This document shows, one piece after another, positions 2 through 48,930 of a DNA stretch of 64,000 bases. Source of the DNA: an uncultured Rhodospirillaceae bacterium (GTDB lineage Bacteria; Pseudomonadota; Alphaproteobacteria; GCA-2731375); assembly GCA_964631725.1 (NCBI GenBank), contig CAZVYX010000016.1:36773-100772 (forward strand), in the 5' to 3' direction. The stretch's first letter is position 1. Each line of letters begins with the position of its first letter. Position numbers and translations under genes: made by a program. The notes under the pieces were generated by a model. That model was not told the origin of the DNA, made no database searches, and saw nothing but the letters and a program-made list of their open reading frames with translations.

Positions 2-466
2 GGTCCGTTCAGCGTCAGCTTCGACGCCTGGAGCCCGTTCAACACCGGCCTGCAGCTCGATTCGGTGATCGATAACGTCGCCGCGCATATCCTTTTTGCC
101 GATGGCGTCGCCGGTGCCGTCGATACCGCCGCCACTTGTACCGCCTTCACCGCCGATCAGGCCGGCAACACCCGCACGCGCCTCTCCAATGGTTTCCAGA
201 TCTTCCCCGGCAGCGTGCCGATCTTCCGCAACAGCACCCTGATCGGCGGCATTGGTGTCTCCGGCGACGGCATCGATCAAGACGACATGGTATCCTTTCT
301 TGGCACCCACGACGCAGGTCAGTCGCTGGGGACCGGTGTCGGCAATGCGCCGACCGGCGTCCGCGCCGATAACCTGGCGCCCCAGGGCGTGCACCTGCGC
401 TATGTCAGTTGTCCTTTCAAACCATTTCTGGGATCCCGTGAGCGCAATGCCTGCCGCAACAAATAG
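2..466 (+). CDS. C-terminal part of a GlcG/DUF336 (HbpS-like heme-binding) family protein; the 5' end lies outside the window
   Basis: The ORF is open from the window edge and reads '...TLIGGIGVSGDGIDQDDMVSF...', which resembles the conserved GxGVSGG..DE core of DUF336/GlcG proteins. Confidence 0.4.
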   Translation, partial: GPFSVSFDAWSPFNTGLQLDSVIDNVAAHILFADGVAGAVDTAATCTAFTADQAGNTRTRLSNGFQIFPGSVPIFRNSTLIGGIGVSGDGIDQDDMVSFLGTHDAGQSLGTGVGNAPTGVRADNLAPQGVHLRYVSCPFKPFLGSRERNACRNK

Positions 467-2390: not shown

Positions 2391-5300
2391 ATGCGCATTC
2401 TATCCATTGTCATCATCATGCTTACGGCGCCATTGCTGTCATTGCAGCCGGCGCTGGCCGCCGGTGGACCCGAGAAACCCAGGCACGTCGAGTTCAGACC
2501 GACCCCCCCGGCGCCGCGGTCCCAATTGCCCGACCAGGCAATGCGCAAGAGCGCCGGCTGCGTTTCGTGCCACACCAAGGTCGACTCGCTGTCGATGCAC
2601 GAAAGCCCCGGCGTCATCCTGGGCTGCACCGATTGCCACGGCGGCAATGCCAACGTTTTCAAGAAGGACTTCGCCACTTACGTGACCGCGAAGCTGGATG
2701 CGCACGTGCAGCCAACCCTGCCGCAAACCTGGGGTCATCCCAGCGCTGCCAATCCGAAGCACAGCTACACGCTGCTGAACCGCGAGGCCCCGGAGTACAT
2801 CCGTTTTGTCAATCCCGGTGACCTGCGGGTCGCGCGCGAGGCCTGCGGCAGCTGCCATCTGCCGATCATCCAGGCCTCCGAACGCAGCCTGATGTCGACG
2901 GGCGCCATGCTGTGGGGCGGCGCCGCATACAACAACAACATCCTGCCGTTCAAGCGCTATATTCTGGGCGAGGGCTATACCCGCGAGGGCGAGGCGGCGG
3001 CGCTGGTCAACCCGGTGGCCCCGGATGCCAAGCTGACCGCGCGCGGCGTGCTGCCGCAGCTATATCCGCTGCCAGCCTGGGAGACAATTCCGCCGGGCGA
3101 CATCTTCCGGGTGTTCGAGCGCGGCGGCCGGAACATCCTTAATCTGTTCCCGGAGATTGGCTTGCCCAATGCCGCCGGCCAGTTGCAGCGGCTGGAAGAG
3201 CCGGGACGCCCGGATATCCGGCAGTCGAACCGCGGCCCCGGTACCGGCCTTAGGATCGCCGTGCCGGTCATCAATATCACCAAGACCCGGCTGAACGACC
3301 CTTTTCTCTGGTTCCTCGGCACCAATGATGGGCCGGGCGACTACCGCTCGTCCGGCTGTTCGGCCTGCCATGTGGTCTACGCCAATGACCGCGACCCGCG
3401 GCACTCCGGTCCGTATGCAAAGTTCGGCCATACCGGCAAGTCGCAGAGCGTCGATCCGACGATTCCGAAGAACGAGGAAGGCCATCCGCTCAAGCATAGC
3501 TTCTCGAACGCCATTCCGACCAGCCAGTGCATGATCTGCCACATGCACCAGCCGAATGTGTTCGTGAACACCTACCTCGGCTACACGATGTGGGATTACG
3601 AATCGGACGCCCCCTTCATGTGGCCGGAAAAGCAGCGCTACCCGACAGCCGCGGAGATGCATAAGATTCTCAGCCGCAACCCGGAGGAGGCGTCGATACG
3701 TGGCAAATGGGGCGACGTCGAATTCCTCAAGGAGGTCAGCAAGCTCAATCCGAAACTGAAGAACACTCAGTTTGCCGACTATCACGGCCATGGCTGGAAC
3801 TTCCGCGCTATCTTCAAGAAGAACCGCAAGGGCGACCTGCTGGATGCCGAGGGCAAGACCGTGGAACCGGACGACCCCGACAAGTTCAAGAAGGCGGTGC
3901 ACATGTCGTCGATCCATCTCGATGTCGGCATGCATTGCGTCGACTGCCATTTCTCACAGGACTCTCATGGCAGCGGACATATCTATGGTGAGGTGCAGGC
4001 GGCGATCGAGATCCGTTGTATTGACTGCCACGGCACCCCGAAAAAGGCGCCGACGCTTCTGACCAGTGGGCCGGCGGCGCCGCCCAACGGCCACGATCTG
4101 GAGCTGCTGCGCACCCCGGATGGACGAAAGCGTTTTAAATGGCGCGGCACCCAATGCGACCGGCCCCTCGAAGAGGCGCGTGACTGCAAGCTCTATCAAC
4201 GCGCCTCGCTCGATCCGGACCTGGAGTGGGAGGTCAGCCTGCTGCGCGACATCGTCGACCCGAAGCACACCGCATTTAACGCCAAGGCGGCGCGCGCCAA
4301 ATTGATGTCCAGCGATCCGCTGGGCCTGAAATGGGGCCCTGGAGTTGATCCCAAGGATCTGGCGCACAAAAGCGACAGCGAATTCGAGTGCTTTACCTGC
4401 CACACGGCCTGGACAACCTCCTGCGCCGGATGTCACCTGCCGATCCAAGCAAATTGGAAGACGGAGCGACATCACTATGAGGGCGGTGAGACCCGCAACT
4501 TCGCTACCTACAACCCGCAGGTGGTGCGCGATCAAATGTTCCAGATCGGCATTCACGGCAGCGTCAAGAACAAGACCATCGCGCCGGTGCGTTCGTCGTC
4601 GGCGCTTATTCTATCATCGCAGAACATCAACCGCGAGCGTATCTACGTTTCGCAGCCGCCGATCGCCGCCAGCGGCTATTCCAGCCAGGCCTTCGCGCCG
4701 CACTTTGCGCACACGGTACGCAAGACGGAAACCAAGACCTGCACCGACTGCCATTTGTCCAAGGAGAACGACAATAACGCGATCATGGCGCAACTGCTGC
4801 TGCATGGCACGAATTTCGTGAATTTCGTTGGGCCGTTTCAGTGGGTCGGCGAAGCCGGTGGCATCGAAGGCGTGAAGGTGGCAGAATTCGATGAGCCACA
4901 GGCGGTGATCGGCAGCTACCTGCACCGCCATGCCTTTCCCGATTGGTACCAAGCCCATCAGGACCGTGGTCAGCAGCTGGAGACCGCGCACGGCCATCGC
5001 GGTGATGAAAGCCGCTGTTTGCAGCACCGTGGCGAGTACCTCTACGTTGCCCAGGGCAAGGACGGAATGCGGGTCTACGATGTCGCCTCGATCGCCAACA
5101 AGGGCATCTCCCAACGTATTATCACCGCGCCATTCTCGCCGTTGGGCCACGACACCCACATCGCCTCGGCCAATGCCACTTGTGTCGTGCTGCCGACCAA
5201 TCAGCCAATTCACCCGGACCGCAACCAGGGTGACCTGATGCGCAAGACCAACGAGGAGCAGCCCTTTCATCCGATCTATGATTACGCTTTCATCACCGAT

Positions 5301-6194
5301 ACCGAGGAAGGCCTGATCCTGACCGACGTCAACACCTTGGCCGACGGCAAGCCGCGCAACAACTACCTGACGCGGGCGCTGACCTGGAACGAGGGCGGCA
5401 TTCTGAACGGTGCCCGCCACCTGACCATCGCCGGCCATTTCTTCTATGTCGCGACTCCGCGCGGCATCGTCGTGCTCGACATGGACGATCCGCTGAAGCC
5501 GAAGGTGCTGGCTTCCATCGAACTGCCGGATGCCCGGGCCAGCGCGCTGCAGTTCCGCTATTTGTTCGTTACCGACGGCGGCGGGTTGTCGGTGGTCGAT
5601 GTCACCAATCCGTCCGAACCGCGCGTCGTACCGGGGGCCAGGATCGCGCTGCAGGATGCCCGGCGCGTCTATTTGGCGCGGACCTTCGCCTATGTCGCAG
5701 CCGGGTCGCAGGGTATCGCCATCGTCGATATCGAGCGGCCGGAGCAGCCGAAGCTTTACCAGCTCTATAACGCCGATGGCAAAATCGCCGACGCCTACGA
5801 TGTTACCGCCGCCTCGACCAACGCCTCGCTGTTCGCCTATGTTGCCGATGGCGCCAACGGCCTGCACGTGGTGCAGTTGACCGCGCCGGACACGCAGCCC
5901 CGGTTCTACGGCTTCAGCCCGGATCCGAAACCTGAGCTGATCGCCACCCGGCGCACCCGGTGGCCGGCGTTATCCCTCTCCAAGGGGTTGGATCGCGATC
6001 GCGCGGTCGACGAGACCGGCCACCAGATCGCCATTTTCGGCCGCATGGGCTCGCGCCCGTTCAACATGCAGGAGATGCAGCAGCTCTACCTCGACAAGGG
6101 CAAGCCGTGGTTTGTCGACGATGAGCCCCGCATGCGGAATTTGCTGCCGGCGCGCCGCCCGGCCGCCGGAAGTCCCAGGGCAAGCCTCGATTGA
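2391..6194 (+). CDS. Secreted decaheme c-type cytochrome with a C-terminal LVIVD-repeat beta-propeller domain
   Basis: Signal peptide MRILSIVIIMLTAPLLSLQPALA. Ten CxxCH motifs (CVSCH, CTDCH, CGSCH, CSACH, CMICH, CVDCH, CIDCH, CFTCH, CAGCH, CTDCH) in the first ~800 aa. The C-terminal ~400 aa carry repeated 'Y/FVAxGxxGxxVxDV(T/S)NPxxP' units typical of LVIVD repeats. An alternative GTG start lies at 2379. Confidence 0.8.
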   Translation: MRILSIVIIMLTAPLLSLQPALAAGGPEKPRHVEFRPTPPAPRSQLPDQAMRKSAGCVSCHTKVDSLSMHESPGVILGCTDCHGGNANVFKKDFATYVTAKLDAHVQPTLPQTWGHPSAANPKHSYTLLNREAPEYIRFVNPGDLRVAREACGSCHLPIIQASERSLMSTGAMLWGGAAYNNNILPFKRYILGEGYTREGEAAALVNPVAPDAKLTARGVLPQLYPLPAWETIPPGDIFRVFERGGRNILNLFPEIGLPNAAGQLQRLEEPGRPDIRQSNRGPGTGLRIAVPVINITKTRLNDPFLWFLGTNDGPGDYRSSGCSACHVVYANDRDPRHSGPYAKFGHTGKSQSVDPTIPKNEEGHPLKHSFSNAIPTSQCMICHMHQPNVFVNTYLGYTMWDYESDAPFMWPEKQRYPTAAEMHKILSRNPEEASIRGKWGDVEFLKEVSKLNPKLKNTQFADYHGHGWNFRAIFKKNRKGDLLDAEGKTVEPDDPDKFKKAVHMSSIHLDVGMHCVDCHFSQDSHGSGHIYGEVQAAIEIRCIDCHGTPKKAPTLLTSGPAAPPNGHDLELLRTPDGRKRFKWRGTQCDRPLEEARDCKLYQRASLDPDLEWEVSLLRDIVDPKHTAFNAKAARAKLMSSDPLGLKWGPGVDPKDLAHKSDSEFECFTCHTAWTTSCAGCHLPIQANWKTERHHYEGGETRNFATYNPQVVRDQMFQIGIHGSVKNKTIAPVRSSSALILSSQNINRERIYVSQPPIAASGYSSQAFAPHFAHTVRKTETKTCTDCHLSKENDNNAIMAQLLLHGTNFVNFVGPFQWVGEAGGIEGVKVAEFDEPQAVIGSYLHRHAFPDWYQAHQDRGQQLETAHGHRGDESRCLQHRGEYLYVAQGKDGMRVYDVASIANKGISQRIITAPFSPLGHDTHIASANATCVVLPTNQPIHPDRNQGDLMRKTNEEQPFHPIYDYAFITDTEEGLILTDVNTLADGKPRNNYLTRALTWNEGGILNGARHLTIAGHFFYVATPRGIVVLDMDDPLKPKVLASIELPDARASALQFRYLFVTDGGGLSVVDVTNPSEPRVVPGARIALQDARRVYLARTFAYVAAGSQGIAIVDIERPEQPKLYQLYNADGKIADAYDVTAASTNASLFAYVADGANGLHVVQLTAPDTQPRFYGFSPDPKPELIATRRTRWPALSLSKGLDRDRAVDETGHQIAIFGRMGSRPFNMQEMQQLYLDKGKPWFVDDEPRMRNLLPARRPAAGSPRASLD

Positions 6195-6242: not shown

Positions 6243-7607
6243 CTACGGAATGAGGCTGCCGAACGCCTGCAGGGCGGCGGTGAACTGTTTCGAATCGTAG
6301 TTGTCGTCGCTTTCGAGCGCCTTGTAGCAGGCGTCCAGCGCCTTCTGCAGCGCCGCCCGCTGGGTCTTGTCCAGGGCGCCGATGTTGCCCATCGCCGCCA
6401 TGATGGTACCGAGCGACATGGTCGCCTGTTCGGCACCGGAATAGTCGGTGTACTGGTTGTCCAGGCCATATTTCACCGTGCCCTTGAGCAGCGCGGTCAT
6501 GTCGGCCTTGCCGAACTTGTGCGATGAAAAGCGCTTGATCAGTTGCTCGGCGTTCGCGCGCAGGGCCGTGGCCTCTTTTGTCAGATTGCCCTGGCCCTCG
6601 CGGCTTGCCTTATGCAGGGCGAGACCGCGTTGACGAAGCTCCTTGCCAAGCTGTGGATCAAGGTGATTGGTGATCACCTGCAGCATCAGCAGATTGGCAT
6701 CCTGCAAGCGCGGAATACCTGGCCCGAGGCCAACCGTGGTACGCGGCTGCCAGCGCTGCTTATTCAGGCTGCGATGACAGCTGTGACAGTCGAACAGCAC
6801 CAACTCGGGGAACACGCCATCACGCCCCATCTTTGGGTCGAGCAGCGCGTCCAGCATGGTCTTTAGCGCCATCGCCTGGCCGATCGCCCAGACCTGGACG
6901 CCGTTCCAGTTGCCCTTCCGTTTGCGGTAGTCGGCGTCAACCTTGTAGTGCGCCGGCTGCAGCGCCGTGAAGGTGTCGAGCTCGAAACTCATGCGCGGAT
7001 GGCCCGCGCCCATGATGCGGTGGCTGACGAAACGCATTTGGTCACCGAAATGGCACGACAGACATAGCCGCGCCCGTTCGATCGGTTTGGCTGTGGAATA
7101 AAGACCGTTCGCGACGTTGTTCTTGTGTGAGGCGTTGGCCGCGATATGCGCGCCAATCCAGCGTCCGGCCCCGCCATGGCAGGCTTCGCAGCCGACCCCG
7201 TCGGTTATCTGGAAGGTTCGGTGGCGCAGCTTTTTCGGCACATTGTCGGCGTGACAGTCGAGGCAGATGTCGGCGGTATGGGCGTCGGGCAGTCCCAAAT
7301 TCGCGGCAATCTTCTTGGAACGTTTGTTCAGCAGCATGTCGTAGGCCTTGGCGTGCTTGTCCTTGCTCTGCCAGGTCACGAATTCGTTCTGCAGGATCGG
7401 TGAATTGGGCCAACTCTTCACCGCGCCGTGGCAGGTGCTGCCCGCGCAGGATGCAACACCCATATGAAATTCCTTGTCCGCAAGCGGCAATAGCATCTCC
7501 GCCGCCGAGGCTCCAAAACTCATCAACGCGCTGGAAAAAATCGTAAGCGCGCCTAGCAGAATGATTGAGCGCCGCACCGTCACACCCCCCGTGTTTCCCA
7601 GACCCAA
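6243..7607 (-). CDS. Periplasmic multiheme (penta-heme) cytochrome c
   Basis: N-terminal signal peptide (RRSIILLGALTIFSSALMSFGASAAE). Heme motifs CAGSTCH (CX4CH-like), CLDCH, CEACH, CLSCH and CHSCH. Confidence 0.7.
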   Translation of the reverse strand: MGLGNTGGVTVRRSIILLGALTIFSSALMSFGASAAEMLLPLADKEFHMGVASCAGSTCHGAVKSWPNSPILQNEFVTWQSKDKHAKAYDMLLNKRSKKIAANLGLPDAHTADICLDCHADNVPKKLRHRTFQITDGVGCEACHGGAGRWIGAHIAANASHKNNVANGLYSTAKPIERARLCLSCHFGDQMRFVSHRIMGAGHPRMSFELDTFTALQPAHYKVDADYRKRKGNWNGVQVWAIGQAMALKTMLDALLDPKMGRDGVFPELVLFDCHSCHRSLNKQRWQPRTTVGLGPGIPRLQDANLLMLQVITNHLDPQLGKELRQRGLALHKASREGQGNLTKEATALRANAEQLIKRFSSHKFGKADMTALLKGTVKYGLDNQYTDYSGAEQATMSLGTIMAAMGNIGALDKTQRAALQKALDACYKALESDDNYDSKQFTAALQAFGSLIP

Positions 7608-7780: not shown

Positions 7781-8626
7781 ATGCGTTTTCAATGTCCGAG
7801 CTACGATTTAGTATTCGCTTTACCGGCCCCTTACCGCTGCGGCATAGTGGCGGACGCATCAAAAAATGACGGCCGCAATGTGACTTGGGATCTATACGTT
7901 GCCATCGTGCTGGTTCTCGCCGCGCCCTTCGTGGGGCGATTTCTTGCCATGCTGGTGGTGCGGTATCCGAACTGGCGCGGCATTTGGTTCGCCCGCTCGG
8001 CTTGTAGTCGCTGCGCCGTACCGCTATCGGTGCGCGCGCAACTTCCGCTTCTTGGCTGGCTTCTTGATGGTGGCCACTGCCCCGCGTGCGGTCAGCGGAC
8101 ACCCGGTCTGGTGCTCCTTTTCGAGATTGCCGCGCTGGCAATCGCCATATGGTCGCTCGCAGTGTTCGACGGCATCGCGGCGGTTTCCGCCGCCATGCTG
8201 GGCTGGCTGCTGATTGCCGCCGCGGCGATCGATCAGCGCACGATGCTGCTGCCTGACAGCTTGACCGCCGCCGCCCTATTGCTGGGATTTGCTGTTGCCG
8301 CCGCCGCCGGTCCCAATGCGTTGTTGAGTGCTCTTGCCGGGGCCGCCGCCGGCTTTGCCGCCTTCGCCCTGATCGGTGCGTTCTTCAGGCGCTTGCACGG
8401 ACACGACGGCCTTGGCCTCGGTGATGCCAAATTGCTGGCGGCGGCGGGCGCATGGGTCGGCTGGCAGTCGCTGCCGTCGTTGGTTTTGATCGCCGCGAGC
8501 ACGGCCATCGTGGTGATCCTATTGACGGGATTGGTAGGTGATGGCGGCATACGGCGGCGGCTACCATTTGGGCCGCACCTGGGATTGGCGGCCTGGCTTA
8601 CCCTGCTCTACCGGCCGTTGCCATGA
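7781..8626 (+). CDS. gspO: Type IV prepilin leader peptidase (A24 family, GspO/PilD)
   Basis: N-terminal tetra-Cys zinc motif (CSRCAVPL...CPACGQ). Conserved GLGDAKLLAAAGAWVGW motif, multiple TM segments. The exact start is uncertain; a later GTG is possible. Confidence 0.8.
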   Translation: MRFQCPSYDLVFALPAPYRCGIVADASKNDGRNVTWDLYVAIVLVLAAPFVGRFLAMLVVRYPNWRGIWFARSACSRCAVPLSVRAQLPLLGWLLDGGHCPACGQRTPGLVLLFEIAALAIAIWSLAVFDGIAAVSAAMLGWLLIAAAAIDQRTMLLPDSLTAAALLLGFAVAAAAGPNALLSALAGAAAGFAAFALIGAFFRRLHGHDGLGLGDAKLLAAAGAWVGWQSLPSLVLIAASTAIVVILLTGLVGDGGIRRRLPFGPHLGLAAWLTLLYRPLP

Positions 8627-8636
8627 GGAGGTGCCG

Positions 8637-10280
8637 TTGACTGCCTCGGCGGTGAAACAACTGATCGACAGTGGTTTGCTTGCCGAGAGCGACCTGGAGC
8701 GCGCGCGCCTTGCCGCCGAGGCGATGTCAACACCGGTGCACAGCGCGCTTGTCGGGCTTGGCCTGGTTGCCGAGGACGCCATGGCCCGCACCCTGGCCGA
8801 CAGTCAGTCGCTGCCGCTGGTCGCTGACAACGACTATCCCGACGAGGCTGTGCTGCCGGACCTATTGACCGAGTCTTTCCTGCGCACCTGCCAGGTGCTG
8901 CCGTTGTCGGCGAATGAGCACACGGTCACGGTGGCGCTTGCCGACCCGCTTGATCGCGATACCATCCGGGCGCTGGAGATGCGCCTCGACCGCAGTGTGC
9001 GGCCGGCTGTCGCCACACCGTCGCAGTTGCGGCGCCATTTTGATCGAATTTACGGCGAAGCCGCCGGCCGCCAGGGCACGGGACCGGGCGAGGAAGGCCG
9101 CGTCTACATCGAGCGATTGCAGGACCAGGTCAGCGACGCCCCGACCGTCAAGCTCGCTAACCGGCTGATCGAACAGGCGGTGATGCAACGCGCCTCCGAC
9201 ATTCACCTGGAGCCGGATGGCGACGATTTGCGGGTGCGATTCCGGATCGACGGCCTGCTGCGCGAGATCCGACGCCTGCCGCTGAGCGACCATGCACCGC
9301 TGATCAGCCGTATCAAGATCATGTCGGGTCTCGACATTGTCGAGCGGCGGTTGCCGCAGGATGGCCGCACGCAGCAAGTGGTCGAAGGCCGCCGCATTGA
9401 TATGCGGGTCTCCTGCCTGCCGATGATGCACGGCGAAGGCATGGTGATCCGGCTGCTGGACCAGAATCGGGCACCATTGGAGCTGGCCGATCTGGGACTG
9501 GACAGCGATCTGCAGGGGCGCCTGGCGGCCGCCCTGGATGGCGGCAGGGGTATCGTGCTGGTGACCGGCCCAACCGGCAGCGGCAAGACCACCACCCTTT
9601 ATGCCGCGCTGCAGCGCTTTAACGACCCGCAAAACAAAATCATTACCGTCGAGGACCCGGTGGAGTTCCAGTTGCCCGGTATCAGCCAAATTCAGGTTCG
9701 GCCCGAGATCGGCCTCGGCTTCAGCCGCGTCTTGCGCTCGGTGCTGCGGCACGATCCGGATACGTTGATGATCGGCGAAATCCGCGATCTGGAAACGGCC
9801 GAGATCGCGGTACAGGCGGCGCTGACCGGTCACCTGGTGTTGTCGACACTGCATACCAACAGCGCGCCTGACGCGCTTACGCGCTTGGCCGACATGGGCC
9901 TCGATCCCTACCGCATCACCGCCTCTGTCGCGGCGGTCGTGGCACAGCGTCTGGTGCGTACCCTGTGCGAACACTGCCGGACGCCGGCCCCCGACGACGT
10001 CAATGGCACCGACGATGTCGGGGGCGGGGCGACAGTTTACGAGGCGGCCGGATGCGAACGGTGCGGCGGCACCGGTTACAATGGACGCACCTTGATCGCC
10101 GAAGTGATGGTTATTGACGAACCTCTGCGCAGCCTGATCATGCAACGTGGGGAGCCGCGGGCGATTGAAAAGGCGGCGCGTGCCGGAGGCCTGCTGCCGA
10201 TGCGCCAGAACGGTCTCGACAAAGTTGCGCAGGGAAAGACGAGCATCGCCGAATTGATGCGCGTGCTGGGGAGCGGCTAG
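8637..10280 (+). CDS. gspE: Type II secretion ATPase GspE
   Basis: Walker A VTGPTGSGKTTTLYAAL. C-terminal tetra-Cys motif CEHCR...CERCGGTGYNGR. GspE N1 domain. Probable TTG start at 8637 preceded by GAGGAGG; the ORF is open from 8538. Confidence 0.9.
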   Translation: MTASAVKQLIDSGLLAESDLERARLAAEAMSTPVHSALVGLGLVAEDAMARTLADSQSLPLVADNDYPDEAVLPDLLTESFLRTCQVLPLSANEHTVTVALADPLDRDTIRALEMRLDRSVRPAVATPSQLRRHFDRIYGEAAGRQGTGPGEEGRVYIERLQDQVSDAPTVKLANRLIEQAVMQRASDIHLEPDGDDLRVRFRIDGLLREIRRLPLSDHAPLISRIKIMSGLDIVERRLPQDGRTQQVVEGRRIDMRVSCLPMMHGEGMVIRLLDQNRAPLELADLGLDSDLQGRLAAALDGGRGIVLVTGPTGSGKTTTLYAALQRFNDPQNKIITVEDPVEFQLPGISQIQVRPEIGLGFSRVLRSVLRHDPDTLMIGEIRDLETAEIAVQAALTGHLVLSTLHTNSAPDALTRLADMGLDPYRITASVAAVVAQRLVRTLCEHCRTPAPDDVNGTDDVGGGATVYEAAGCERCGGTGYNGRTLIAEVMVIDEPLRSLIMQRGEPRAIEKAARAGGLLPMRQNGLDKVAQGKTSIAELMRVLGSG

Positions 10281-10283
10281 GCG

Positions 10284-11507
10284 ATGCCGTGGTTCCAGTA
10301 CCGTGCGGTGGATGCCGGAGATCACGTGGTGGAGGCCTCGATTGAGGCAGACGACCGCGACACGGCGCTGGCGCGGCTGCGCGGCGAGGGCTTGCTGCCG
10401 CTGCGTCTGGACCCTGTCGGCGACGCCGGGGGCCGGTCCTGGCGTGTGCAACTGCGGCGCTGGCTCAGCTACCTCGACCCTGACGCCGGGCGGTTGCCGC
10501 CGCCGGCGATTACCGCCTTCGTGCGGGAGCTCAGTATGCTGCTTGATGCCGGCATTGGCGCCGACCGGGCCTTGCTGATCATCGCCCGCTCGGCGGAACG
10601 GCCGATACTGGCGCAGCTCGCCACCGACCTGCGCCAGCGTGTCCGCGCCGGCGACAGCCTGGCGGATGCGCTCGACCAGGATTCGGGGCACTTCGATGCG
10701 GTGTTCCGTGCCACGGTTCGCGCCGGCGAAGCCGGCAGCGCCCTGACCGATGCGCTGGCGCGCCTCGCGGATTGGCGGGAGCAGCGCGAATATATGCTGG
10801 CTGCGGTCAGGTCAGCGCTGATCTATCCCTGTTTCCTGATCGTCGCGGCGCTGATGTCCTTCCTGGTGCTGCTGCTGTTCGTGGTGCCGCAATTTGAGGC
10901 GCTGTTCCAGCAGACTGGCGCCGAGGTGTCGCTGTTCACCGGCGCCCTGCTCGCTGTTTCCGGCTTTCTGCGCAGCTACCTACCGGTGATCGTCGTATTG
11001 GCGCTGGTGCTCTGGCTGCTCGCGCGCCGGCGCCGCACCGCATGGACCGGCCTCGCGGCGCGGCTGCCGATCTTGCGCGGTTTCCTGCGGAAGGTGGCGA
11101 TTGAGCGCGCGCTTAGCATTATGGCGATCCTTTTTGCCAGCCGTATGCCGGCACCGGCGGCATTGGATTTGGCGGCGGAGGCGGTCGGCGATCCGGGGTT
11201 GGCATCATCGCTGCGGCAGACGGCGGCGCGGGTTCGTGAAGGCGCCCGCCTAAGCGACAGCCTGCGCCGGACCGGCGACTTGCCGGAGCTGGTGGTCGAG
11301 ATGATCTCGGTCGGTGAGGATGCCGGCTCGCTTCAGGAGATTCTGGAGCGCCTTGGCGAGCGACTGCGGGCCGACGTCGAACAGGGCTTACGCCGGCTGA
11401 TCGCGGTGATCGAGCCGGTGCTGATCATTTTGACGGGAATCCTGGTTGCTTCTATCATTCTGACCCTGTTGTCGGCGATCGCGAGCGTTCATGCCCTGGT
11501 ATACTGA
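10284..11507 (+). CDS. gspF: Type II secretion inner-membrane platform protein GspF
   Basis: Duplicated GspF/PilC domains and three TM segments. Located immediately after gspE. Confidence 0.9.
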   Translation: MPWFQYRAVDAGDHVVEASIEADDRDTALARLRGEGLLPLRLDPVGDAGGRSWRVQLRRWLSYLDPDAGRLPPPAITAFVRELSMLLDAGIGADRALLIIARSAERPILAQLATDLRQRVRAGDSLADALDQDSGHFDAVFRATVRAGEAGSALTDALARLADWREQREYMLAAVRSALIYPCFLIVAALMSFLVLLLFVVPQFEALFQQTGAEVSLFTGALLAVSGFLRSYLPVIVVLALVLWLLARRRRTAWTGLAARLPILRGFLRKVAIERALSIMAILFASRMPAPAALDLAAEAVGDPGLASSLRQTAARVREGARLSDSLRRTGDLPELVVEMISVGEDAGSLQEILERLGERLRADVEQGLRRLIAVIEPVLIILTGILVASIILTLLSAIASVHALVY

Positions 11508-11955
11508 AACCGAAATCAGACAGCCGCAAAGGGCGTGTGGTCAGCAAGGCTTCACGCTCATCGAACTGCTGGTTGTTCTGGTCATTCTCGGCCTGCTGAT
11601 TGGTTTGGTGACGCCGACCGTGATCAGCTATCTCGGTCGCGCCAAGATCGATGTGGCTCGCATCCAAATAGACAGCCTGGCGACGGCGCTGGACCTATAC
11701 CGGTTGGATGTCGGCCGCTATCCCAGGCAGGCCGAAGGCCTTGCCGCGCTTACCAGGCGCCCGGCCGGCGAGGAACACTGGAACGGACCCTATCTGAGGG
11801 GCGATGTGCCGCTGGATCCCTGGCACCACGCCTACCTCTACAAGCGGCCGAAGAGCGGTGCCGGCGGTTACAGCCTGCAGAGCCTCGGCGCCGACGGCAA
11901 GGCGGGCGGCGATGGCGAGGATGCCGACATCATGGTCCAGTCGTCTGCGTTATGA
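11491..11955 (+). CDS. gspG: Major pseudopilin GspG
   Basis: Prepilin signal ...QQG|FTLIELLVVLVILGLL and the GspG core (DxxRYP, NGPYL). Confidence 0.9.
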   Translation: MPWYTETEIRQPQRACGQQGFTLIELLVVLVILGLLIGLVTPTVISYLGRAKIDVARIQIDSLATALDLYRLDVGRYPRQAEGLAALTRRPAGEEHWNGPYLRGDVPLDPWHHAYLYKRPKSGAGGYSLQSLGADGKAGGDGEDADIMVQSSAL

Positions 11956-12398
11956 CCGGCCATGATGGGCAGCGCGGCTTCACGCTAATTGAATTGGTCG
12001 TGGTGATTGCGCTGCTGGCACTGGTGGCCGCCATCGCCGCTCCGGCCGCCGGTCGTCTCTTTGATCTATCGTCGTCGGTTGATGACGCCAAACGCCTGGC
12101 GATGGCGATGCGGCAGGCGCGAATGACGGCGATCAGTGAAGGGCAGCCGCAATCTGTCCACATCGATCCGGTGCGCCGCCGTTGGCGACATGGCGACAGC
12201 GTTGGGACATTTGATGGTGCCGCGTCAATTTCCGCCGTGGTGCCGCCCGCCGGGCGCCGTCTGAACGGAGTGTCCGCAATTGTATTCCTGCCTGACGGTA
12301 GCGCCACCGGCGGACGCATCGTGCTGGGCGAGGGCCATCGCCAACAAAGCGTCGCCGTCGACTGGCTGACCGGGACCGTCTCGATTGCCGGCCCGTAG
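11952..12398 (+). CDS. gspH: Minor pseudopilin GspH
   Basis: Starts ATGA-overlapped with the gspG stop. Leader MTGHDGQRG|FTLIELVVV. Confidence 0.75.
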   Translation: MTGHDGQRGFTLIELVVVIALLALVAAIAAPAAGRLFDLSSSVDDAKRLAMAMRQARMTAISEGQPQSVHIDPVRRRWRHGDSVGTFDGAASISAVVPPAGRRLNGVSAIVFLPDGSATGGRIVLGEGHRQQSVAVDWLTGTVSIAGP

Positions 12399-12786
12399 GC
12401 AAGCCGGCTTCAGCCTGCTGGAGGTCTTGGTCAGCCTGGTTGTGGTGGCACTGACGGTTGGCGCCGCCATTGGCGTGTACGGTCAGGCCGCCGAAAGCGC
12501 CGGGCGTGGCGAGCGGGCGCTGCAGGCCTTGATGACGGCGCAATCGCTCCTGGCCGAGCACGGCACGGCCATCCCACTGAAGAGCGGCACCAATTACGGG
12601 AAAACAGAGGCAGGTCTGCGTTGGCGGAGTATCGTCTCACCCTATGAAGGCCTCGACCGGGACCAGATGCGCCGCCTGCCGGTAAAGCCGTTCACCGTCG
12701 GCGTCACCGTTTCCTGGGGTGATGCAAAGGCCCAGTCACTGACGTTGCGGGCCTTGAAGATCACGGAGCCGGCAGATGCCCGATAG
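12385..12786 (+). CDS. gspI: Minor pseudopilin GspI
   Basis: Leader MPARRQAG|FSLLEVLVSLVV; size ~130 aa. Confidence 0.75.
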   Translation: MPARRQAGFSLLEVLVSLVVVALTVGAAIGVYGQAAESAGRGERALQALMTAQSLLAEHGTAIPLKSGTNYGKTEAGLRWRSIVSPYEGLDRDQMRRLPVKPFTVGVTVSWGDAKAQSLTLRALKITEPADAR

Positions 12787-13384
12787 GCGGCGACAGGCCG
12801 GCTTCACGCTGCTGGAATTGGTTGTCGGCATCGCCCTTCTGGCCCTGATTACCACGCTGCTGGTCAACGTCCTCGGTACCGGTATCGCCGCTACGAAGCA
12901 AGTGGACCGGCGCACCGAGCGGATTGAGCGGGCGCACCACGTACATAGGCTGTTGCGCGAGCGGCTTGAAACGGTGCGTCCCCTGGACTGGGAAATTGGC
13001 GAGGGGCGACAGCAGGTATTCGCGGGCGAGGCTGACACCATGCGGTTCATCACCACGGCGCCGCCCTGGCCCGACCTTGGCGGCCTGGTGCTGGATTGGC
13101 TGCACCTGAGCGGCGGTCGTCTGGTGCTGACGGAACGGCGCTTTATAGGGGCCGACGACGCGCTGAACGGCAATGATGCCGAAAATGGCACGACGCTGGC
13201 GCGCGACATTGGCACGCTGCATATCGACTATTATGGCCAGGTGGAGCGCCGGCGCGCGGCTTGGCACGGCTTCTGGAACCAGCGGGAACTACCGGACCTG
13301 ATCCGCGTACGAATCGCTTGGCGCGATGGCGAAAAATGGCCCGACCTTGTCGTGCATCCCCGGCTCGCACGACAGCCGAGGTGA
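12776..13384 (+). CDS. gspJ: Minor pseudopilin GspJ
   Basis: Leader MPDRRRQAG|FTLLELVVGIALL; size ~200 aa. Confidence 0.75.
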   Translation: MPDRRRQAGFTLLELVVGIALLALITTLLVNVLGTGIAATKQVDRRTERIERAHHVHRLLRERLETVRPLDWEIGEGRQQVFAGEADTMRFITTAPPWPDLGGLVLDWLHLSGGRLVLTERRFIGADDALNGNDAENGTTLARDIGTLHIDYYGQVERRRAAWHGFWNQRELPDLIRVRIAWRDGEKWPDLVVHPRLARQPR

Positions 13385-13390
13385 CGGTGA

Positions 13391-14320
13391 ATGGTTGACA
13401 TGAGCAACATCAGGCAGCGACAAGGTAGCGTGCTTTTGGTGGTGTTGTGGCTGCTGGTGATGCTGGCATTGATTGCCCAAGGCGTGGCGCAACGGTCGCG
13501 CAGCCACCTAACGCTGGCGCGGGCCCAGATCGATCTGGCGCAGGAGCGCCTGCGCGCGCAGGCCGGCGTGTTGCACGGGGCGTTGCTGCTGCTTGATCGG
13601 GGGCGGCCTCTACCGCCACGCCAAAGCCTGACAGGCGGGAATGCGCCAGCCATTATCGGCGCCGCGGTTGATATCGAGATCATTGACGAATGCGGCCGCG
13701 TCGACCTGAACACCGGCCACGCCGACATGATCGCCGCCCTGTTCAACGGTTTTGGGCTGGCCGATCGTTCCAGGCAACAGGCAAACGCGGTCCTCGACTA
13801 CCGCGATCCCGGCAGCCGGCCCCGGCCGCAGGGCGCCGAACATGACGCCTACCGCGCCGCCGGGCGCTTCGACGGCCCCCGCAACGGCCCATTCGAGACG
13901 GTTGCCGAACTGCACCAGGTGTTGGGTCTCGACGCTGAAACCGTGGCGCGGCTGACACCGTACTTTACCGTTGACTGCCTCAATGCTGGCGTCGACCCGA
14001 TGGCCGCCAGCGCGCCGCTGCTGCGGCTGTTGCCCTCGTGGGCCGCGCCTGACTCGCTGCAGAGCTTTCTGCATGCCCGAGATGACGCGTCACGCAACGG
14101 CGGCGGCGGGATGCGTTGGCCGGCCGGACTGGGGAAGTATGCGGAGCCCTCGGACGGTCACGCCTACGGTATCAGGGCGACGACCCGCGGCCCGGCCCCC
14201 GCCGTTAGCTGGTCGGCGGTGGTGTGGCTTGGTGGCGGCGATGGCCGGCCACTTGCATTCCGCACCTGGGAACCGGATAGGACGAATATCCTCGTTGCCA
14301 AGGACGGTGACGATAATTGA
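13391..14320 (+). CDS. gspK: Minor pseudopilin GspK
   Basis: N-terminus QRQGSVLLVVLWLLVMLALIA, typical of GspK. Size ~300 aa; follows gspJ. Confidence 0.7.
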   Translation: MVDMSNIRQRQGSVLLVVLWLLVMLALIAQGVAQRSRSHLTLARAQIDLAQERLRAQAGVLHGALLLLDRGRPLPPRQSLTGGNAPAIIGAAVDIEIIDECGRVDLNTGHADMIAALFNGFGLADRSRQQANAVLDYRDPGSRPRPQGAEHDAYRAAGRFDGPRNGPFETVAELHQVLGLDAETVARLTPYFTVDCLNAGVDPMAASAPLLRLLPSWAAPDSLQSFLHARDDASRNGGGGMRWPAGLGKYAEPSDGHAYGIRATTRGPAPAVSWSAVVWLGGGDGRPLAFRTWEPDRTNILVAKDGDDN

Positions 14321-14395
14321 CGGTGGTGGTTTTAATCTCGCGTCGAATCAAGATAGGATAGTCATTTACTGAACTCGTACGTCTGAGGGGAATAG

Positions 14396-16075
14396 ATGTT
14401 CGTGAACGGTCGGTTGCTGGTATTGGGTATCCTTCTGGGTACGCTATCCGGATGTGCTTCGCTTGATGTCGCCGCTTGGTTCGGCGGTGAAGCTAAAGAC
14501 ACCCCGCGCCCACCGACGCAACAGCAGCAGGCCGCAGCCTCGAACGAAGCGCCAGATGGCTGGATTGTCGACACGGTGAGTGGCTGTGCGACCAGCAACC
14601 CGCAGCCGACGGCAGGCGAAAGCATTCGCTGGTTCGGCGATTGCAGTAACGGCAAACTAAGCGGTCACGGCACCTTGATATGGTACCGGGACGGCCACGA
14701 AACCGAGCGCAACGAAGGCGGCTTCCGGGGCGGAGAACTGCATGGCGAGGTGGTGACGACGTTTGACGATGGCACCTATATCGTCGGCGAATATGTTGAC
14801 GGGCAGCGCAACGGCAATTTCATGATACGCCGGCCTGACGGCTCGCACCTGCACGCGCTCTACGAGGGCGGAGAACTGTCGGCACGGCGCGTCGCCAGCG
14901 CCGGGGAAGTCGATGCCTGGCTGATGGCCCGGGCCCGCCAGGTCGCCGAGGCGGCCGAGGCCGCGCCTGGGCGCGAAGTGCGCCAAGTGGCCGCCGCGCC
15001 GGTATCGCAAACGATTGCGAACAGGCCGCCGCCCGCCGCAAGGGTCGACGCAACGAAGGCCGTGCCGGTTGTGTCAGTGCCACAACAGACGGTAGTAGCC
15101 GTCACGCCAGCGTCCAGCCCCGCTCCAGTATCATCACCCTTGGGCAAAGCTAATGGCGACCGTGGCAATATTGTCGTGTCTTCTGCTTCCGTGGCGAACG
15201 CCTACCAGCCCGCCGCCTACTACCCGCGTGCGATGTACCCGCTCGACAGCGTCACCCAGACCGCCAGGCTATATGCCGGCCGCGATGGTCCGTGGGTTGC
15301 CGGTCCACGCACTGGTGGCGCGTCGCCGGCCGGCGGCGGCACCATCGTCATTTCCTCTGCCTCGGTGACGACCGAGTATGCGAACCGGGGCGGCGCCGTG
15401 CCGCGGTCGTACCATGTGCCGCAACAGCTCGCCATGGCCACCTACCAACCGGTCGCCCGTTCGCCGCGCGCCGTAATCGAACTTGAAAACACCGCTCAGT
15501 CCGCCGTGACATACGCTGGCCGCGCCGCCGGTGCGCCGCCTCGCCGATCCAGGGATCTGACACCGTCGGTATCGCCTGATACGTTGTTCAGCCAGGGTTA
15601 TCGGCTGGAACTCGCCGGTCAACGGCAGGCCGCGGCACGCGTTTATGACGAGGTCCTGCTGCAGCATCCATCGGCACCATCGGCGCTGTTGGCGAATGCC
15701 CGTCTGGTGCAGCTGCGCCAGCCGCAACCGGTACAACGGATGCAAGCCTCGGTGGTCGCGGTCAACTCGCCTACGCCGAACGGCTCACCGCGCCCGGCGT
15801 CATTGGCACCCAGCCGTGCCTCGCCGGCATCGGCGCTACATCGCCAAGTTTGCAGTCGCGGTGGCCTCTATGAAAGTGACAGCGGCTGGTGCGGCACCGT
15901 GACCGGTGAGCAGGGGCCATACTACTGGGTCCGCGTCGACGGGGTTCATTTGCGCGGCTTTGCCACCATCGGCATCACCCGCTCGACCTGCACGGGCAAC
16001 AACTTCCTGAACTGGTTCTCGCTCGGCTCGTCGGTCAAGGTGCCGAAACAGTGCATGACATTTCAGGCGGGCTGA
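14396..16075 (+). CDS. Lipoprotein with MORN repeats, an Ala/Pro-rich linker and a Cys-containing C-terminal domain (candidate T2SS-associated protein or cargo)
   Basis: Lipobox LGTLSGC. Repeated YxDGxxxEGxxxxGxxHG units (GHGTLIWYRDGHETERNEGGFRGGELHGEVV...). Low-complexity A/P/S region. C-terminal Cys residues. Confidence 0.55.
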   Translation: MFVNGRLLVLGILLGTLSGCASLDVAAWFGGEAKDTPRPPTQQQQAAASNEAPDGWIVDTVSGCATSNPQPTAGESIRWFGDCSNGKLSGHGTLIWYRDGHETERNEGGFRGGELHGEVVTTFDDGTYIVGEYVDGQRNGNFMIRRPDGSHLHALYEGGELSARRVASAGEVDAWLMARARQVAEAAEAAPGREVRQVAAAPVSQTIANRPPPAARVDATKAVPVVSVPQQTVVAVTPASSPAPVSSPLGKANGDRGNIVVSSASVANAYQPAAYYPRAMYPLDSVTQTARLYAGRDGPWVAGPRTGGASPAGGGTIVISSASVTTEYANRGGAVPRSYHVPQQLAMATYQPVARSPRAVIELENTAQSAVTYAGRAAGAPPRRSRDLTPSVSPDTLFSQGYRLELAGQRQAAARVYDEVLLQHPSAPSALLANARLVQLRQPQPVQRMQASVVAVNSPTPNGSPRPASLAPSRASPASALHRQVCSRGGLYESDSGWCGTVTGEQGPYYWVRVDGVHLRGFATIGITRSTCTGNNFLNWFSLGSSVKVPKQCMTFQAG

Positions 16076-16081
16076 TAAGTA

Positions 16082-17302
16082 ATGCCCAATCTATTTGCTT
16101 TGCTGAAGATGATGCGCCGGGCCGCGCCAGCCGTGGTGGCCGTCTCGGTCTTGGCCGCGATCATCCAGCAGCCGGTCAACGCGCAGGTGTCCCGGTCCGA
16201 CTACGCGGCCAGGGTCTCCGCCATCACCAATAGCATTGTTGCCGGCGCCGCGGGCGGCACGGGCAGTGGCGACCGTCCAGCTATATTTTTTGACCTTAAC
16301 GGCGCCAGTGGCGTGTCTGCCGGCGACGACGCCGTGATAGCGGGTGCCAGACGTCTCTATGAGATCTATCGCGCCCTCGGCGGCCCGCGGCTCGGCCAGA
16401 ATGCCTTTTACGAACGCAAGGACGGCCGCATCTATATTGGTCTTGAAGGTCAAGGTGGACGCTGGGTCGATGGCGGCGTACAGGCCTTGGAGGTCCTTCG
16501 CGAGCAGTTGGTCGAAGCGGCCGTGGCACAGCAGCCGGTTGCGCCTGCCGAACAGCCGGTTTGTCGAAGCTTTGAGTGCCTGCTCTTGGCCAACTACAAG
16601 GGCGACGCGCCGCTCGCCGGTTTCGTGCCACGGGGTCAGACCCAGGTTCTGGAGCTGTCGGGCAAGGGCTTCAGTGATGCGGGCGGCCCACCTGTCGTGC
16701 TGACCCCGGCGGCGTTTTACGTCGATAGCGTGGCATTTGTAAGCGCCGGGGAAGTTCAGGTTACCCTCTTGGTCGATGAAAGCGCCACGCTGGGCGCCAA
16801 GAGTCTGCTGGTATTCAATCGAGGCCGGGCCTTCCGAAGCGTCGGCCGCTACCAGGTGCATGTTGTCGCCAGCATCGAGGAGCTGGAGGCGATCGCCGCC
16901 GGCACTGTGCCCCTTCCTGGGACCACCATTCCACCAGCCGATAGTGCGTTATATCAGGGCGGTGTCGGACGGGATGACGATTACGGCAACGATGCAAAGA
17001 CGGCCACCGATGTTGCCGATGGCCTCTCTGGTCGACTGGAACGGCCGGGCGATCTGGACGTCTTCCGCCTCGTGGTGCCTCGGAACGCGACGGTCGAAAT
17101 CACTTCAACCGGGCCGTCGGATTTGGCGGCGGAGCTGCGCGACGCCGTCGATACCCTGATCGCCGCTGACGATGACGGCGGCGCGCGCTACAACTTCCGA
17201 ATTTCGCGCCAATTGGCCGCGGGCACCTATTTTGTCACCGTCAGTCATTGCTGTGGCGGTACCGGCAGCTACCGTTTTACGGCGACGCAGAAGCCGCAGT
17301 AG
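16082..17302 (+). CDS. Secreted protein with a C-terminal pre-peptidase (PPC)-like domain (candidate T2SS cargo)
   Basis: Signal peptide ...AVVAVSVLAAIIQQPVNAQV. C-terminal DVFRLVVPRNATVEITSTGPSDL...DDDGGARYNFRISRQLAAGTYFVTVSH matches the PPC/collagenase-type beta-sandwich pattern. Confidence 0.5.
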   Translation: MPNLFALLKMMRRAAPAVVAVSVLAAIIQQPVNAQVSRSDYAARVSAITNSIVAGAAGGTGSGDRPAIFFDLNGASGVSAGDDAVIAGARRLYEIYRALGGPRLGQNAFYERKDGRIYIGLEGQGGRWVDGGVQALEVLREQLVEAAVAQQPVAPAEQPVCRSFECLLLANYKGDAPLAGFVPRGQTQVLELSGKGFSDAGGPPVVLTPAAFYVDSVAFVSAGEVQVTLLVDESATLGAKSLLVFNRGRAFRSVGRYQVHVVASIEELEAIAAGTVPLPGTTIPPADSALYQGGVGRDDDYGNDAKTATDVADGLSGRLERPGDLDVFRLVVPRNATVEITSTGPSDLAAELRDAVDTLIAADDDGGARYNFRISRQLAAGTYFVTVSHCCGGTGSYRFTATQKPQ

Positions 17303-17350
17303 CGGTTATGGGTGTCCCAAATCCTGTAATTTGCCGGTACTAGAAGAGCT

Positions 17351-19519: not shown

Positions 19520-19629
19520 GCGGCCCTTCCATCGAATTTAGAGCGCTTCAGCGGTAATCGGAAATGCTCTGATTTGTGCAATTTGATAGCCTAGGTGCTA
19601 TCGCGGCGGGGTTCAATGGACAAAGAGGC

Positions 19630-20690: not shown

Positions 20691-20705
20691 GACCCGCCGC
20701 CGCCG

Positions 20706-25189: not shown

Positions 25190-25294
25190 TCTGCGCCGAA
25201 GATCCAACGGCATAGAGGAGCCCCATGAATATTGGAGGCGCCGCCGATCCAGCGGGTTTGTCAGCAAAGGCCATTTATGTTGCTGGAAAGATTT

Positions 25295-48642: not shown

Positions 48643-48764
48643 GATCCTAGCTGGTGATAAAGGCGGGAATGTCCGGAATGATTCATGACCTTGCGTCCTC
48701 CCTCCGAGGATCTGTTACTTGGTTTCAACAGGCCGCGCGCGTCTTCTGGCTTAGGATCATCGGT

Positions 48765-48930
48765 TGCGGGACCTTCCCGGCGGCAGCACCGCCAGTGGCA
48801 TTTTCCCGTTTCCTCACCATTCACAGTTGCGGGGGCAGCGCCGGATTTTACGTCCCGAACTGACAGGGACGAAACACCGGCTTCCGCGCCACGGCTGGCG
48901 CAAACTAGCACGCATGACAGGCCCCGGCAA
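48765..48930 (-). ncRNA. Cobalamin (AdoCbl) riboswitch in the 5' leader of the cobW-cobN-cobO-cobQ operon
   Basis: The minus-strand sequence reads ...GCGCGGAAGCCGGTGTTTCGTCCCTGTCAGTTCGGGACGTAAAATCCGGCGCTGCCCCCGCAACTGTGAATGGTGAGGAAACGGGAAAATGCCACTGGCGGTGCTGCCGCCGGGAAGG... It contains the GAAGCCGGTG, AAAATCC, CCCCGCAACTGT, B12-box GCCACTG and GGGAAGG consensus elements in the canonical order. Confidence 0.75.

Follow-up and report, generated by a model that had tools for sequence, protein, structure and literature searches.

The window analysed here, a stretch of 64,000 nucleotides from an uncultured Rhodospirillaceae bacterium (GenBank assembly GCA_964631725.1, contig CAZVYX010000016.1, positions 36,773 to 100,772), opens inside a cluster of genes, one of which encodes a secreted protein of 1,267 residues, here called G, where ten c-type haem motifs are followed by a C-terminal beta-propeller of LVIVD repeats. 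This decahaem-LVIVD fusion is common and conserved across phyla, and it has neither a curated family nor a solved structure. We see about an even chance that G serves as the terminal, surface-side reductase of an outward-running porin-cytochrome conduit that draws on NAD(P)H.

A decahaem cytochrome joined to an LVIVD propeller

The gene and the parts of its product lie in the window as follows:

2391-6194, + strand: G, decahaem c-type cytochrome with LVIVD propeller, 1,267 residues, secreted
2391-2462, + strand: signal peptide of G (residues 1-24), Sec-type, cleaved between ALA and AG, no lipobox, from sequence reading and a hydrophobic-segment scan
2463-4820, + strand: multihaem domain of G (residues 25-810), ten CxxCH sites
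4836-5990, + strand: LVIVD beta-propeller of G (residues ~816-1200), about seven blades, from PF08309, a repeat scan and AlphaFold2
5991-6191, + strand: C-terminal tail of G, its first part conserved, the remainder variable and modelled with low confidence

The reading frame of G is uninterrupted from its ATG to the stop codon (the longest version of the open reading frame opens at a GTG at 2379), and the type-I cleavage site falls between MRILSIVIIMLTAPLLSLQPALA and AGG. Strings resembling a lipobox are rare among homologues, occurring in 7 of 120 proteobacterial sequences and 16 of 120 from other phyla. There are exactly ten CxxCH motifs, starting at residues 57, 79, 152, 323, 380, 516, 543, 667, 678 and 784 (nucleotides 2559, 2625, 2844, 3357, 3528, 3936, 4017, 4389, 4422 and 4740), compared with 0.0175 per sequence when G is shuffled. 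Twenty of the 24 cysteines sit inside these motifs, and a scan of the sequence for CxxCK and CX3-4CH variants found none. The resulting haem density is about one per 79 residues, against one per 39 or so in C, another cytochrome of the cluster; surface cytochromes such as MtrC and OmcA have some 67-73 residues per haem, and the barrel-inserted MtrA about 33.

All ten motifs are invariant in 39 of 39 close homologues and persist down to relatives that share 41-51% identity, some of which have a CX3-4CH motif at haem 3; among the 240 homologues listed, 230 carry the ten. The blocks around haems 4-5 are especially conserved, and the haem domain retains 50-58% identity across phyla. Outside the motifs the family has nine invariant and four near-invariant histidines, which are enough for bis-histidine ligation of all ten haems, and from the alignment this is probably how every one of them is bound. 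A metagenomic relative of 1,648 residues (P0131) has 28 CxxCH motifs, made up of the usual ten and an 18-haem N-terminal extension that precedes the conserved domain and the propeller.

The C-terminal part holds six copies of the pattern (Y/F)hAxGxxGhxVhD, starting at residues 885, 965, 1019, 1057, 1101 and 1150 (nucleotides 5043, 5283, 5445, 5559, 5691 and 5838) and spanning residues 885-1162, where shuffled sequences give 0.0005 matches each. With the Pfam LVIVD model (PF08309), whose cut-off is 20.2 bits, G scores 63.4 (E=1.2e-17). Giant haem-free LVIVD proteins also match the blades. An AlphaFold2 model of residues 25-1224, built with 39 close homologues, renders residues ~816-1200 as an all-beta repeat with a per-residue confidence (pLDDT) of about 90, and its DSSP strands can be grouped as six LVIVD blades and one more, made of the first and last strands, that closes the ring; the count of about seven is taken from this strand list and not from coordinates. 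A Foldseek comparison of the propeller with the PDB gave only 7-8-bladed propellers as top matches. No function was transferred from them, as they are generic (BtuG, AztD, WD40 proteins, cd1 nitrite reductase), with similar scores and about 10% identity. BtuG is a propeller that caps an outer-membrane barrel, which for G is a mere analogy.

Across phyla, no cysteine or histidine of the propeller is invariant, and it has no cluster of Cys, His or Met able to hold a cofactor. A copper, haem or iron-sulphur site was accordingly discarded, C876, C931 and every histidine being lost in one phylum or another. The two cysteines (nucleotides 5016-5018 and 5181-5183) are invariant in the proteobacterial clade only, and may form a disulfide specific to that clade. 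An acidic/Asn cluster (D970, E973, D985, N990, N991, N1000) is conserved across phyla, as is R-D-R-x-x-D at residues 1202-1207. The latter belongs to the conserved stretch of the tail, residues ~1200-1225 (DRDRAVDETGxQ...FGRxGSRPF), in which R1202, R1204, D1207, G1210, Q1212, R1218 and G1220 do not vary between phyla; pLDDT drops below 50 beyond model residue 1178. With no Cys or His conserved across phyla, the propeller seems an unlikely place for a redox cofactor, and it probably serves for docking or binding and not for redox chemistry.

G has matches in more than 8,000 database clusters, and the best 120 matches are all full-length proteins of 1,200-1,340 residues at 66-89% identity. Relatives occur in at least 596 species of Alpha-, Beta- and Gammaproteobacteria, counting one genome per species; isolates that have one include Limnobacter alexandrii, Steroidobacter agaridevorans and Fontimonas, and Oceanibacterium hippocampi and Sinimarinibacterium thermocellulolyticum are among the protein matches. 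A HMMER search without filters of 1.8 billion representatives returned 1,601 proteins at E<1e-30, with full-length relatives reaching down to 41-53% identity. A profile search that included distant relatives added full-length members named Acidobacteriota, Rokubacteria, Wallbacteria, Riflebacteria and Calditrichota, together with one more full-length representative from Planctomycetota, so that full-length relatives span 41-89% identity overall. One might still suspect a fusion produced by an assembly error or frameshift that ran two genes together, or motifs arising by chance. Given the uninterrupted frame, motif counts far in excess of chance, and an architecture of 1,200-1,350 residues that recurs at full coverage in hundreds of independent genomes, we allow this next to no probability, and we regard it as refuted by conservation.

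The relatives of the haem domain are more distant. Pfam returns threshold-level matches to generic c3/c7 models only, with the MtrC/MtrF domain PF22113 far under threshold, and neither Pfam nor NCBIfam has a model that covers the whole of G. The best NCBIfam model, ExtM (NF040943), has a cut-off of 800 bits and reaches 64.9 with G (E=4e-18), in three stretches centred on haems 6-7. Searching the sequences of the PDB with the single protein found nothing, and a 39-sequence profile found only ActA of alternative complex III (ACIII; E=0.017), from which no membership was drawn. A profile of 149 family members matched the octahaem nitrite reductase (ONR) of Thioalkalivibrio at E=8e-4, nothing stronger, and NrfA at E~0.05. 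The alignment with ONR consists of two collinear stretches, one at haems 1-2 and the other at the haem 6-7 pair 'H..G..C.DCH…C.DCH'; scores against NrfA, ONR and octahaem tetrathionate reductase (OTR) are marginal, and catalytic residues could not be mapped. In the first AlphaFold2 model, made from a shallow alignment, the haem region had a pLDDT below 50 and only the propeller was used; the haem domain was re-modelled with 149 sequences from two clades, and Foldseek with the new model found nothing under E=3.7. The haem domain may thus be a distant relative of the NrfA/ONR/OTR superfamily, an uncertain placement, and it is without a close solved analogue.

An earlier note, made from the letters of this DNA, had described ten CxxCH sites in front of at least six LVIVD repeats, and this domain call has held up throughout: there are ten sites (residues 57-788) and six repeats, Pfam assigns the repeats to LVIVD, the model shows a confident propeller of about seven blades, and the haem motifs are kept in close and distant homologues alike. 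Its statement that the combination lies outside described families also agrees with the absence of a whole-protein model in Pfam and NCBIfam, with the best PDB match at E=8e-4, and with a search of the literature available, which found no paper tying LVIVD repeats to a multihaem cytochrome. The architecture is, however, not the unusual one that the note took it for, being present in at least 596 species plus six other phyla or candidate phyla; what the note missed was this commonness across phyla, the surrounding cluster of seven to eight genes, and the related clusters already described, PCC4, ptd and a group that joins a large decahaem protein with a porin and a ferredoxin-NADP reductase.

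The gene cluster around G

The genes around G were compared by tblastn of neighbour proteins against 80 related loci, and the members, here lettered A to H, were annotated from two of these loci, L009 (Rhodospirillaceae) and L027 (Limnobacter). In the relatives they are:

A, 58 of 80 loci: cytoplasmic protein of ~800 residues, with a Pyr_redox FAD (flavin)/NAD(P) domain, two cyclic nucleotide (cNMP)-binding domains and 4Fe-4S clusters (Fer4)
B, 56 of 80 loci: inner-membrane protein of ~275 residues
C, 58 of 80 loci: decahaem cytochrome with an N-terminal inner-membrane anchor
D, inconsistently present: small secreted protein
E, 64 of 80 loci: secreted protein with three HbpS-like/GlcG domains, directly 5' of F
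F, 76 of 80 loci: outer-membrane barrel, directly 5' of G
G, 80 of 80 loci: decahaem-LVIVD protein
H, 49 of 80 loci: c554-like pentahaem cytochrome

Two fixed gene orders occur: A-B-C-(D)-E-F-G-(H) and B-C-E-F-G-H-A. In Beta- and Gammaproteobacteria H is co-directional and just 3' of G, and in Alphaproteobacteria it is inverted. Median identities are highest for G (~64-66%), followed by F (54%), A (53%), E (52%), B and H (43% each) and C (32%). The linkage reaches beyond the Proteobacteria, with an E-F-G-H core in one acidobacterial and one Wallbacteria genome, and F adjoins G in Acidobacteria and Wallbacteria at 39-40% identity.

Protein A has an N-terminal GxGxxG and neither a signal peptide nor a transmembrane segment. 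In B, the residues W78-x3-H82-x13-H96, S119-G-x-x-G123 and W246-x3-H250 are conserved in L009 and 53 other sequences (with an x13 H264 in L009), a pattern from which B is predicted to bind two b haems in the manner of ferric-reductase/NOX domains. The C of L009 (4089-5849 of that locus) has an N-terminal cytoplasmic FHA domain, which binds phosphothreonine, and the Limnobacter homologue is without it. A further variation is found in an Acidobacteriia locus (L083, 1-5833), where A is replaced by a NuoF-like Complex1_51K protein, a 723-residue Fer2/Fer4/cNMP-binding protein and a separate Pyr_redox_2 flavoprotein, and where the barrel protein bears an N-terminal CarboxypepD_reg domain. In three Limnobacter loci (L027, L028 and L038), the cluster has as neighbours, at ~17.6-23.8 kb in locus coordinates, a gene for a CHASE2 adenylate/guanylate cyclase, one for a FecR-domain protein and another that is also conserved. 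This cyclase, together with the two cNMP domains of A, hints at control of the cluster by cyclic nucleotides. In a scan of 44 upstream regions for Fur, Irr-ICE, FNR and CRP consensus sites the best matches were no better than in control stretches; the scan, a weak test, thus lends no support to regulation by iron or oxygen.

In the window itself, the neighbours of G are:

2-466, + strand: 3' end of E, its last ~155 codons, with the TAG stop at 464-466; the window opens inside this gene
447-2378, + strand: F, outer-membrane beta-barrel of 643 residues from the ATG at 447, with a signal peptide and a C-terminal ...NLILVF
6243-7607, - strand: H, c554-like pentahaem cytochrome, its C-terminal half helical; the start may be a later GTG/ATG, 7583-7496
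7781-21758, both strands: type II secretion set, complete by Pfam, adjoining H

The fragment of E was recognised from the L009 homologue, residues 475-624 of which match window positions 2-463 at 57% identity (tblastn); in the E homologues of L009 and L027 the HbpS-like model PF03928 is matched three times. Pfam gave no match for F of the window, and weak matches to porin models are DESULF_POR1 for F (E=4e-5) and Alginate_exp for its L027 homologue (E=0.006). H matches Pfam Cytochrome_C554 at E=5.8e-10 and, in the PDB, Nitrosomonas cytochrome c554 (1bvb) at E=2e-4, a match on which the idea of a pentahaem protein of the NrfA-like PtdA type was rejected. The L009 H has five haem motifs, one of them CX4CH, and the same five can be read by eye in the window. 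The window was also searched for a second copy of G and for homologues of A, B and C, and none was found. On long contigs of relatives at 72-77% identity the whole gene set is present, and judged from these the A-C half almost certainly lies just 5' of the window.

The secretion set comprises, on the + strand, a prepilin peptidase (GspO), GspE, GspF, GspG and GspH, minor pseudopilins, GspK, an unannotated 559-residue open reading frame and one with a PPC domain, and on the - strand the secretin and the GspM-like and PilN/GspL-like proteins. It adjoins the cluster in three of four close relatives examined (L081, L082 and L086, not L085), and among the 80 loci only 1-2 contain matches to its proteins. 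It was thus rejected as a general part of the cluster and kept as a lineage-specific hint. Type II systems export MtrC and OmcA, and in this lineage the adjoining set is a possible export route for G.

Further into the window, just past the secretion genes, lies a heavy-metal P-type ATPase (22028-24475, - strand) that has YHS and HMBD domains for metal binding at its N-terminus, and at 25232-26530 (+ strand) a second propeller-cytochrome fusion, a protein of 432 residues in which a BNR/Sortilin-type (Asp-box) beta-propeller precedes a C-terminal cytochrome c domain with one haem. At 48719-48932 on the - strand there is a cobalamin riboswitch (Rfam RF00174, 85 bits), with a 347-residue open reading frame (47599-48642) and a CobN-type chelatase (43827-47591) downstream on the same strand.

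The role of G: outward conduit and alternatives

On the reading that we favour, electrons would pass from cytoplasmic NAD(P)H onto the FAD and then the iron-sulphur clusters of A, the two predicted b haems of B would take them over the inner membrane, C and H would carry them through the periplasm, and F would provide the crossing of the outer membrane to the ten haems of G, which would then reduce an extracellular or insoluble acceptor. The propeller would dock G on the barrel or the cell surface, or else bind the acceptor, and the two cNMP-binding domains of A might act as a regulatory gate. The putative donor bears on direction: inward flow to NAD(P)+ in a cell that is negative inside would be doubly uphill, from which we infer that electrons run outward. 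In favour of a conduit, the barrel gene stands beside G in 76 of the 80 loci, with the multihaem proteins C and H nearby, and does so in other phyla too; F has the signal peptide and C-terminal aromatic residue of an outer-membrane barrel; and the 18-haem extension of one relative is what a wire would have. The suggestion of the earlier note that the propeller is a surface domain for binding a substrate or mineral fits this context (the adjoining barrel, the secretion genes, the want of conserved cofactor ligands) and is plausible, if incomplete, its location and its partner being putative.

Several points weigh against an outward conduit ending in G. The signal of G is a plain Sec signal with no lipobox, unlike those of MtrC, OmcA and OmcB; its place at the surface is a deduction; and the linkage to type II secretion is limited to one lineage. 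With a median identity of 64-66% among proteobacterial classes, G is far better conserved than is usual for a haem wire and in this rather resembles an enzyme, or a hub in contact with many partners, and its faint homology is toward the catalytic NrfA/ONR/OTR superfamily. Proteins A to C lie outside the window and their presence here is deduced from relatives at 72-77% identity, the scan for Fur, Irr, FNR and CRP sites yields no clue to the acceptor, and for the related PCC4 cluster He et al. (PMC5566968) proposed electron uptake.

Some of these points fit better with a periplasmic enzyme, in which G would be a divergent decahaem member of the NrfA/ONR/OTR superfamily acting on a soluble substrate (nitrite, hydroxylamine, NO, a sulphur oxyanion or peroxide are candidates) with electrons from NAD(P)H via A, B and C. 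The propeller would then shape the substrate site or oligomerise, as in cytochrome cd1 and hydrazine synthase, and F would be a channel for substrate or product. The profile matches to ONR (E=8e-4) and NrfA (E~0.05) argue for this, as do the very high conservation of G, above all around haems 4-5, and the Sec signal without lipid anchor; the related ptd cluster has an NrfA-family pentahaem protein with a beta-sandwich beside its porin gene, and redox enzymes that combine haem and propeller exist, cd1 nitrite reductase being itself among the propeller matches. However, G has no CxxCK and no evident catalytic haem, its conserved histidines are numerous enough to supply both axial ligands of every haem, a cofactor in the propeller would find no conserved cluster of Cys, His or Met, the superfamily scores are all marginal and Foldseek found nothing, and a dedicated barrel gene beside G in 76 of 80 loci with two or three more multihaem proteins is typical of a conduit, not of a reductase with a soluble substrate. 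We consider such an enzyme the main rival to the outward conduit, a possibility of real but limited weight, on the unlikely side.

The conduit could also run inward, with G oxidising an extracellular donor, for example Fe(II), Mn(II), or a mineral or humic substance in reduced form, and electrons passing via F, H, C and B to quinone, as in the model of He et al. for PCC4, and with A regulatory or otherwise employed. B has the motif set of PCC3/PCC4, and those clusters come from genomes of iron oxidisers and were modelled as uptake systems (PMC5566968). One relative of G (L029) is from a biocathode community, and many hosts are aerobes for which O2 is a possible acceptor. Yet a quinone-ending chain has no obvious role for the linked NAD(P)-flavoprotein/Fe-S protein A (58 of 80 loci, NuoF-like in Acidobacteria), and the cluster has no cupredoxin or Cyc2-type partner. 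Most of the named hosts are organoheterotrophs, as we take Steroidobacter, Fontimonas, Algiphilus, Oceanibacterium and Limnobacter to be, and according to a study of karst groundwater carbon fixation is confined to few of the genomes that have such clusters (PMC13264449). We therefore give inward flow only a slim chance.

Returning to outward flow, a more specific form of it can be proposed. Heterotrophic bacteria show widespread, regulated and NAD(P)H-stimulated production of extracellular superoxide, and the cluster could be an envelope-spanning bacterial counterpart of the eukaryotic NADPH oxidase/ferric reductase, in which the cyclic-nucleotide-gated A would feed an FRD-like dihaem b protein, then three multihaem cytochromes, and so a surface G that makes superoxide from O2 and/or dissolves Fe(III)/Mn(IV) minerals in aerobic heterotrophs. 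We put this forward as a speculation with a small probability of being right; if true, it would give a molecular basis for extracellular superoxide production by heterotrophic bacteria.

If G does end an outward conduit, the cluster would be among the most widely distributed putative electron conduits of the cell envelope, and one with no characterised member, curated family or structure. Its hosts are mostly aerobic, heterotrophic Alpha-, Beta- and Gammaproteobacteria, together with Acidobacteriota, Planctomycetota and several candidate phyla, and are not regarded as electroactive. A flavoprotein with cNMP-binding domains and an FRD-like b-type protein at the entry, and a propeller at the end, suggest a regulated, non-respiratory export of reducing power, possibly for mobilisation of iron and manganese, production of reactive oxygen, redox balancing or detoxification. 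The role of G can be tested directly, as there are cultured hosts (Limnobacter alexandrii, Steroidobacter agaridevorans, Fontimonas, Oceanibacterium hippocampi and Sinimarinibacterium thermocellulolyticum).

Comparison with known systems

Systems in which a barrel gene stands beside multihaem cytochromes are well known from MtrCAB of Shewanella and OmaB-OmbB-OmcB of Geobacter, and the cluster around G follows the same logic. As in Mtr-type systems, it pairs one haem-dense, wire-like decahaem protein (C) with one large, haem-sparse cytochrome (G). The two ends differ, however: the proposed entry is by an NAD(P)H flavoprotein with cNMP domains and an FRD-like b-type membrane protein where Mtr/Pcc systems use a quinol dehydrogenase, and the terminal cytochrome is fused to a propeller, unlike theirs. 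Nor does G belong with the MtrC/OmcA/MtrF family, having neither a PF22113 domain nor a lipobox. The Methylobacter electrogenic cluster (PMC13322032) was considered as another instance and set aside, as it is of the MtrA/MtrB type, and the uet cluster of Tenderiales was set aside too, its LVIVD protein being separate and haem-free.

Among catalytic multihaem proteins, NrfA, ONR and OTR differ from G, which has ten haems, no CxxCK, a haem part of ~800 residues, three further haems and the propeller. ExtM, which NCBIfam names as a selenite/tellurite reduction operon c-type cytochrome, is another partial likeness, but its model has 599 positions, about half of G, the match is short, and its own function is unproven. 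On the propeller side, LVIVD surface proteins (PF08309; Adindla et al. 2004, PMC2447325) and 'choice-of-anchor B' proteins share the repeat type and the four-strand blade. Proteins with LVIVD repeats are typically secreted or at the surface and, unlike G, haem-free; as their members have no demonstrated function, membership says nothing of the mechanism of G.

A description that comes very near to the cluster is that of 'Group 1' in metagenome-assembled genomes from karst groundwater, where the passages available (PMC13264449, 2026) report a decahaem gene of 4-5 kb beside a porin of ~20 strands, with a ferredoxin-NADP reductase gene near 7 of 11 such clusters. A dominant Limnobacter genome there carries a porin-cytochrome cluster whose group those passages do not state; Limnobacter genomes L027, L028 and L038 of our set hold the G cluster. 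Judged by its description in these passages, Group 1 is very probably the same cluster, though the account as available is descriptive only and makes no mention of the propeller, the HbpS-like protein, the inner-membrane protein or a proposed function.

The closest likeness is to PCC4 and ptdABCDEFG. He et al. 2017 (PMC5566968) described PCC4, in which a porin goes with periplasmic cytochromes of 4, 5 and 10 haems, with a membrane protein, and with an Fe-S protein plus one more redox protein, and likened the inner-membrane protein of PCC3/PCC4, with its two WX3HX13H motifs and SGXXG, to the dihaem FRE/NOX domain. The ptdABCDEFG genes, whose function is unknown, were named in a 2024 preprint (Elbon et al., 10.1101/2023.11.21.568154); among the products annotated there are a membrane protein resembling ferric reductase, a 4Fe-4S protein that binds cNMP and an FAD/NAD(P) oxidoreductase, and the gene for an NrfA-family pentahaem protein with a beta-sandwich (PtdA) adjoins the porin gene. 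By gene content, PCC4 and ptdABCDEFG appear to be the same gene set. The G cluster has in common with them a porin gene, several multihaem cytochromes including a decahaem one, an inner-membrane protein of about five transmembrane segments with two WX3HX13H motifs and SGXXG, and the linked Fe-S/cNMP-binding protein and FAD/NAD(P) oxidoreductase, and both occur in Alphaproteobacteria, Gammaproteobacteria and Planctomycetes. This likeness is one of motifs and domain content only. The differences are equally definite. PCC4/ptd is without the decahaem-LVIVD protein of ~1,270 residues and without the triple HbpS-like protein, and is described as having 'no extracellular MHC' (multihaem cytochrome). 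The FAD and cNMP/Fe-S parts that are fused in the ~800-residue A are separate proteins there. The haem sets are 10 (C), 10 (G) and 5 (H), with no tetrahaem protein seen, against 4, 5 and 10 in PCC4/ptd, and the pentahaem protein is c554-like where PtdA is NrfA-like with a beta-sandwich. On this comparison, we take the cluster to be a variant form akin to PCC4/ptd, which is just as uncharacterised, with the decahaem-LVIVD protein G as its signature subunit.

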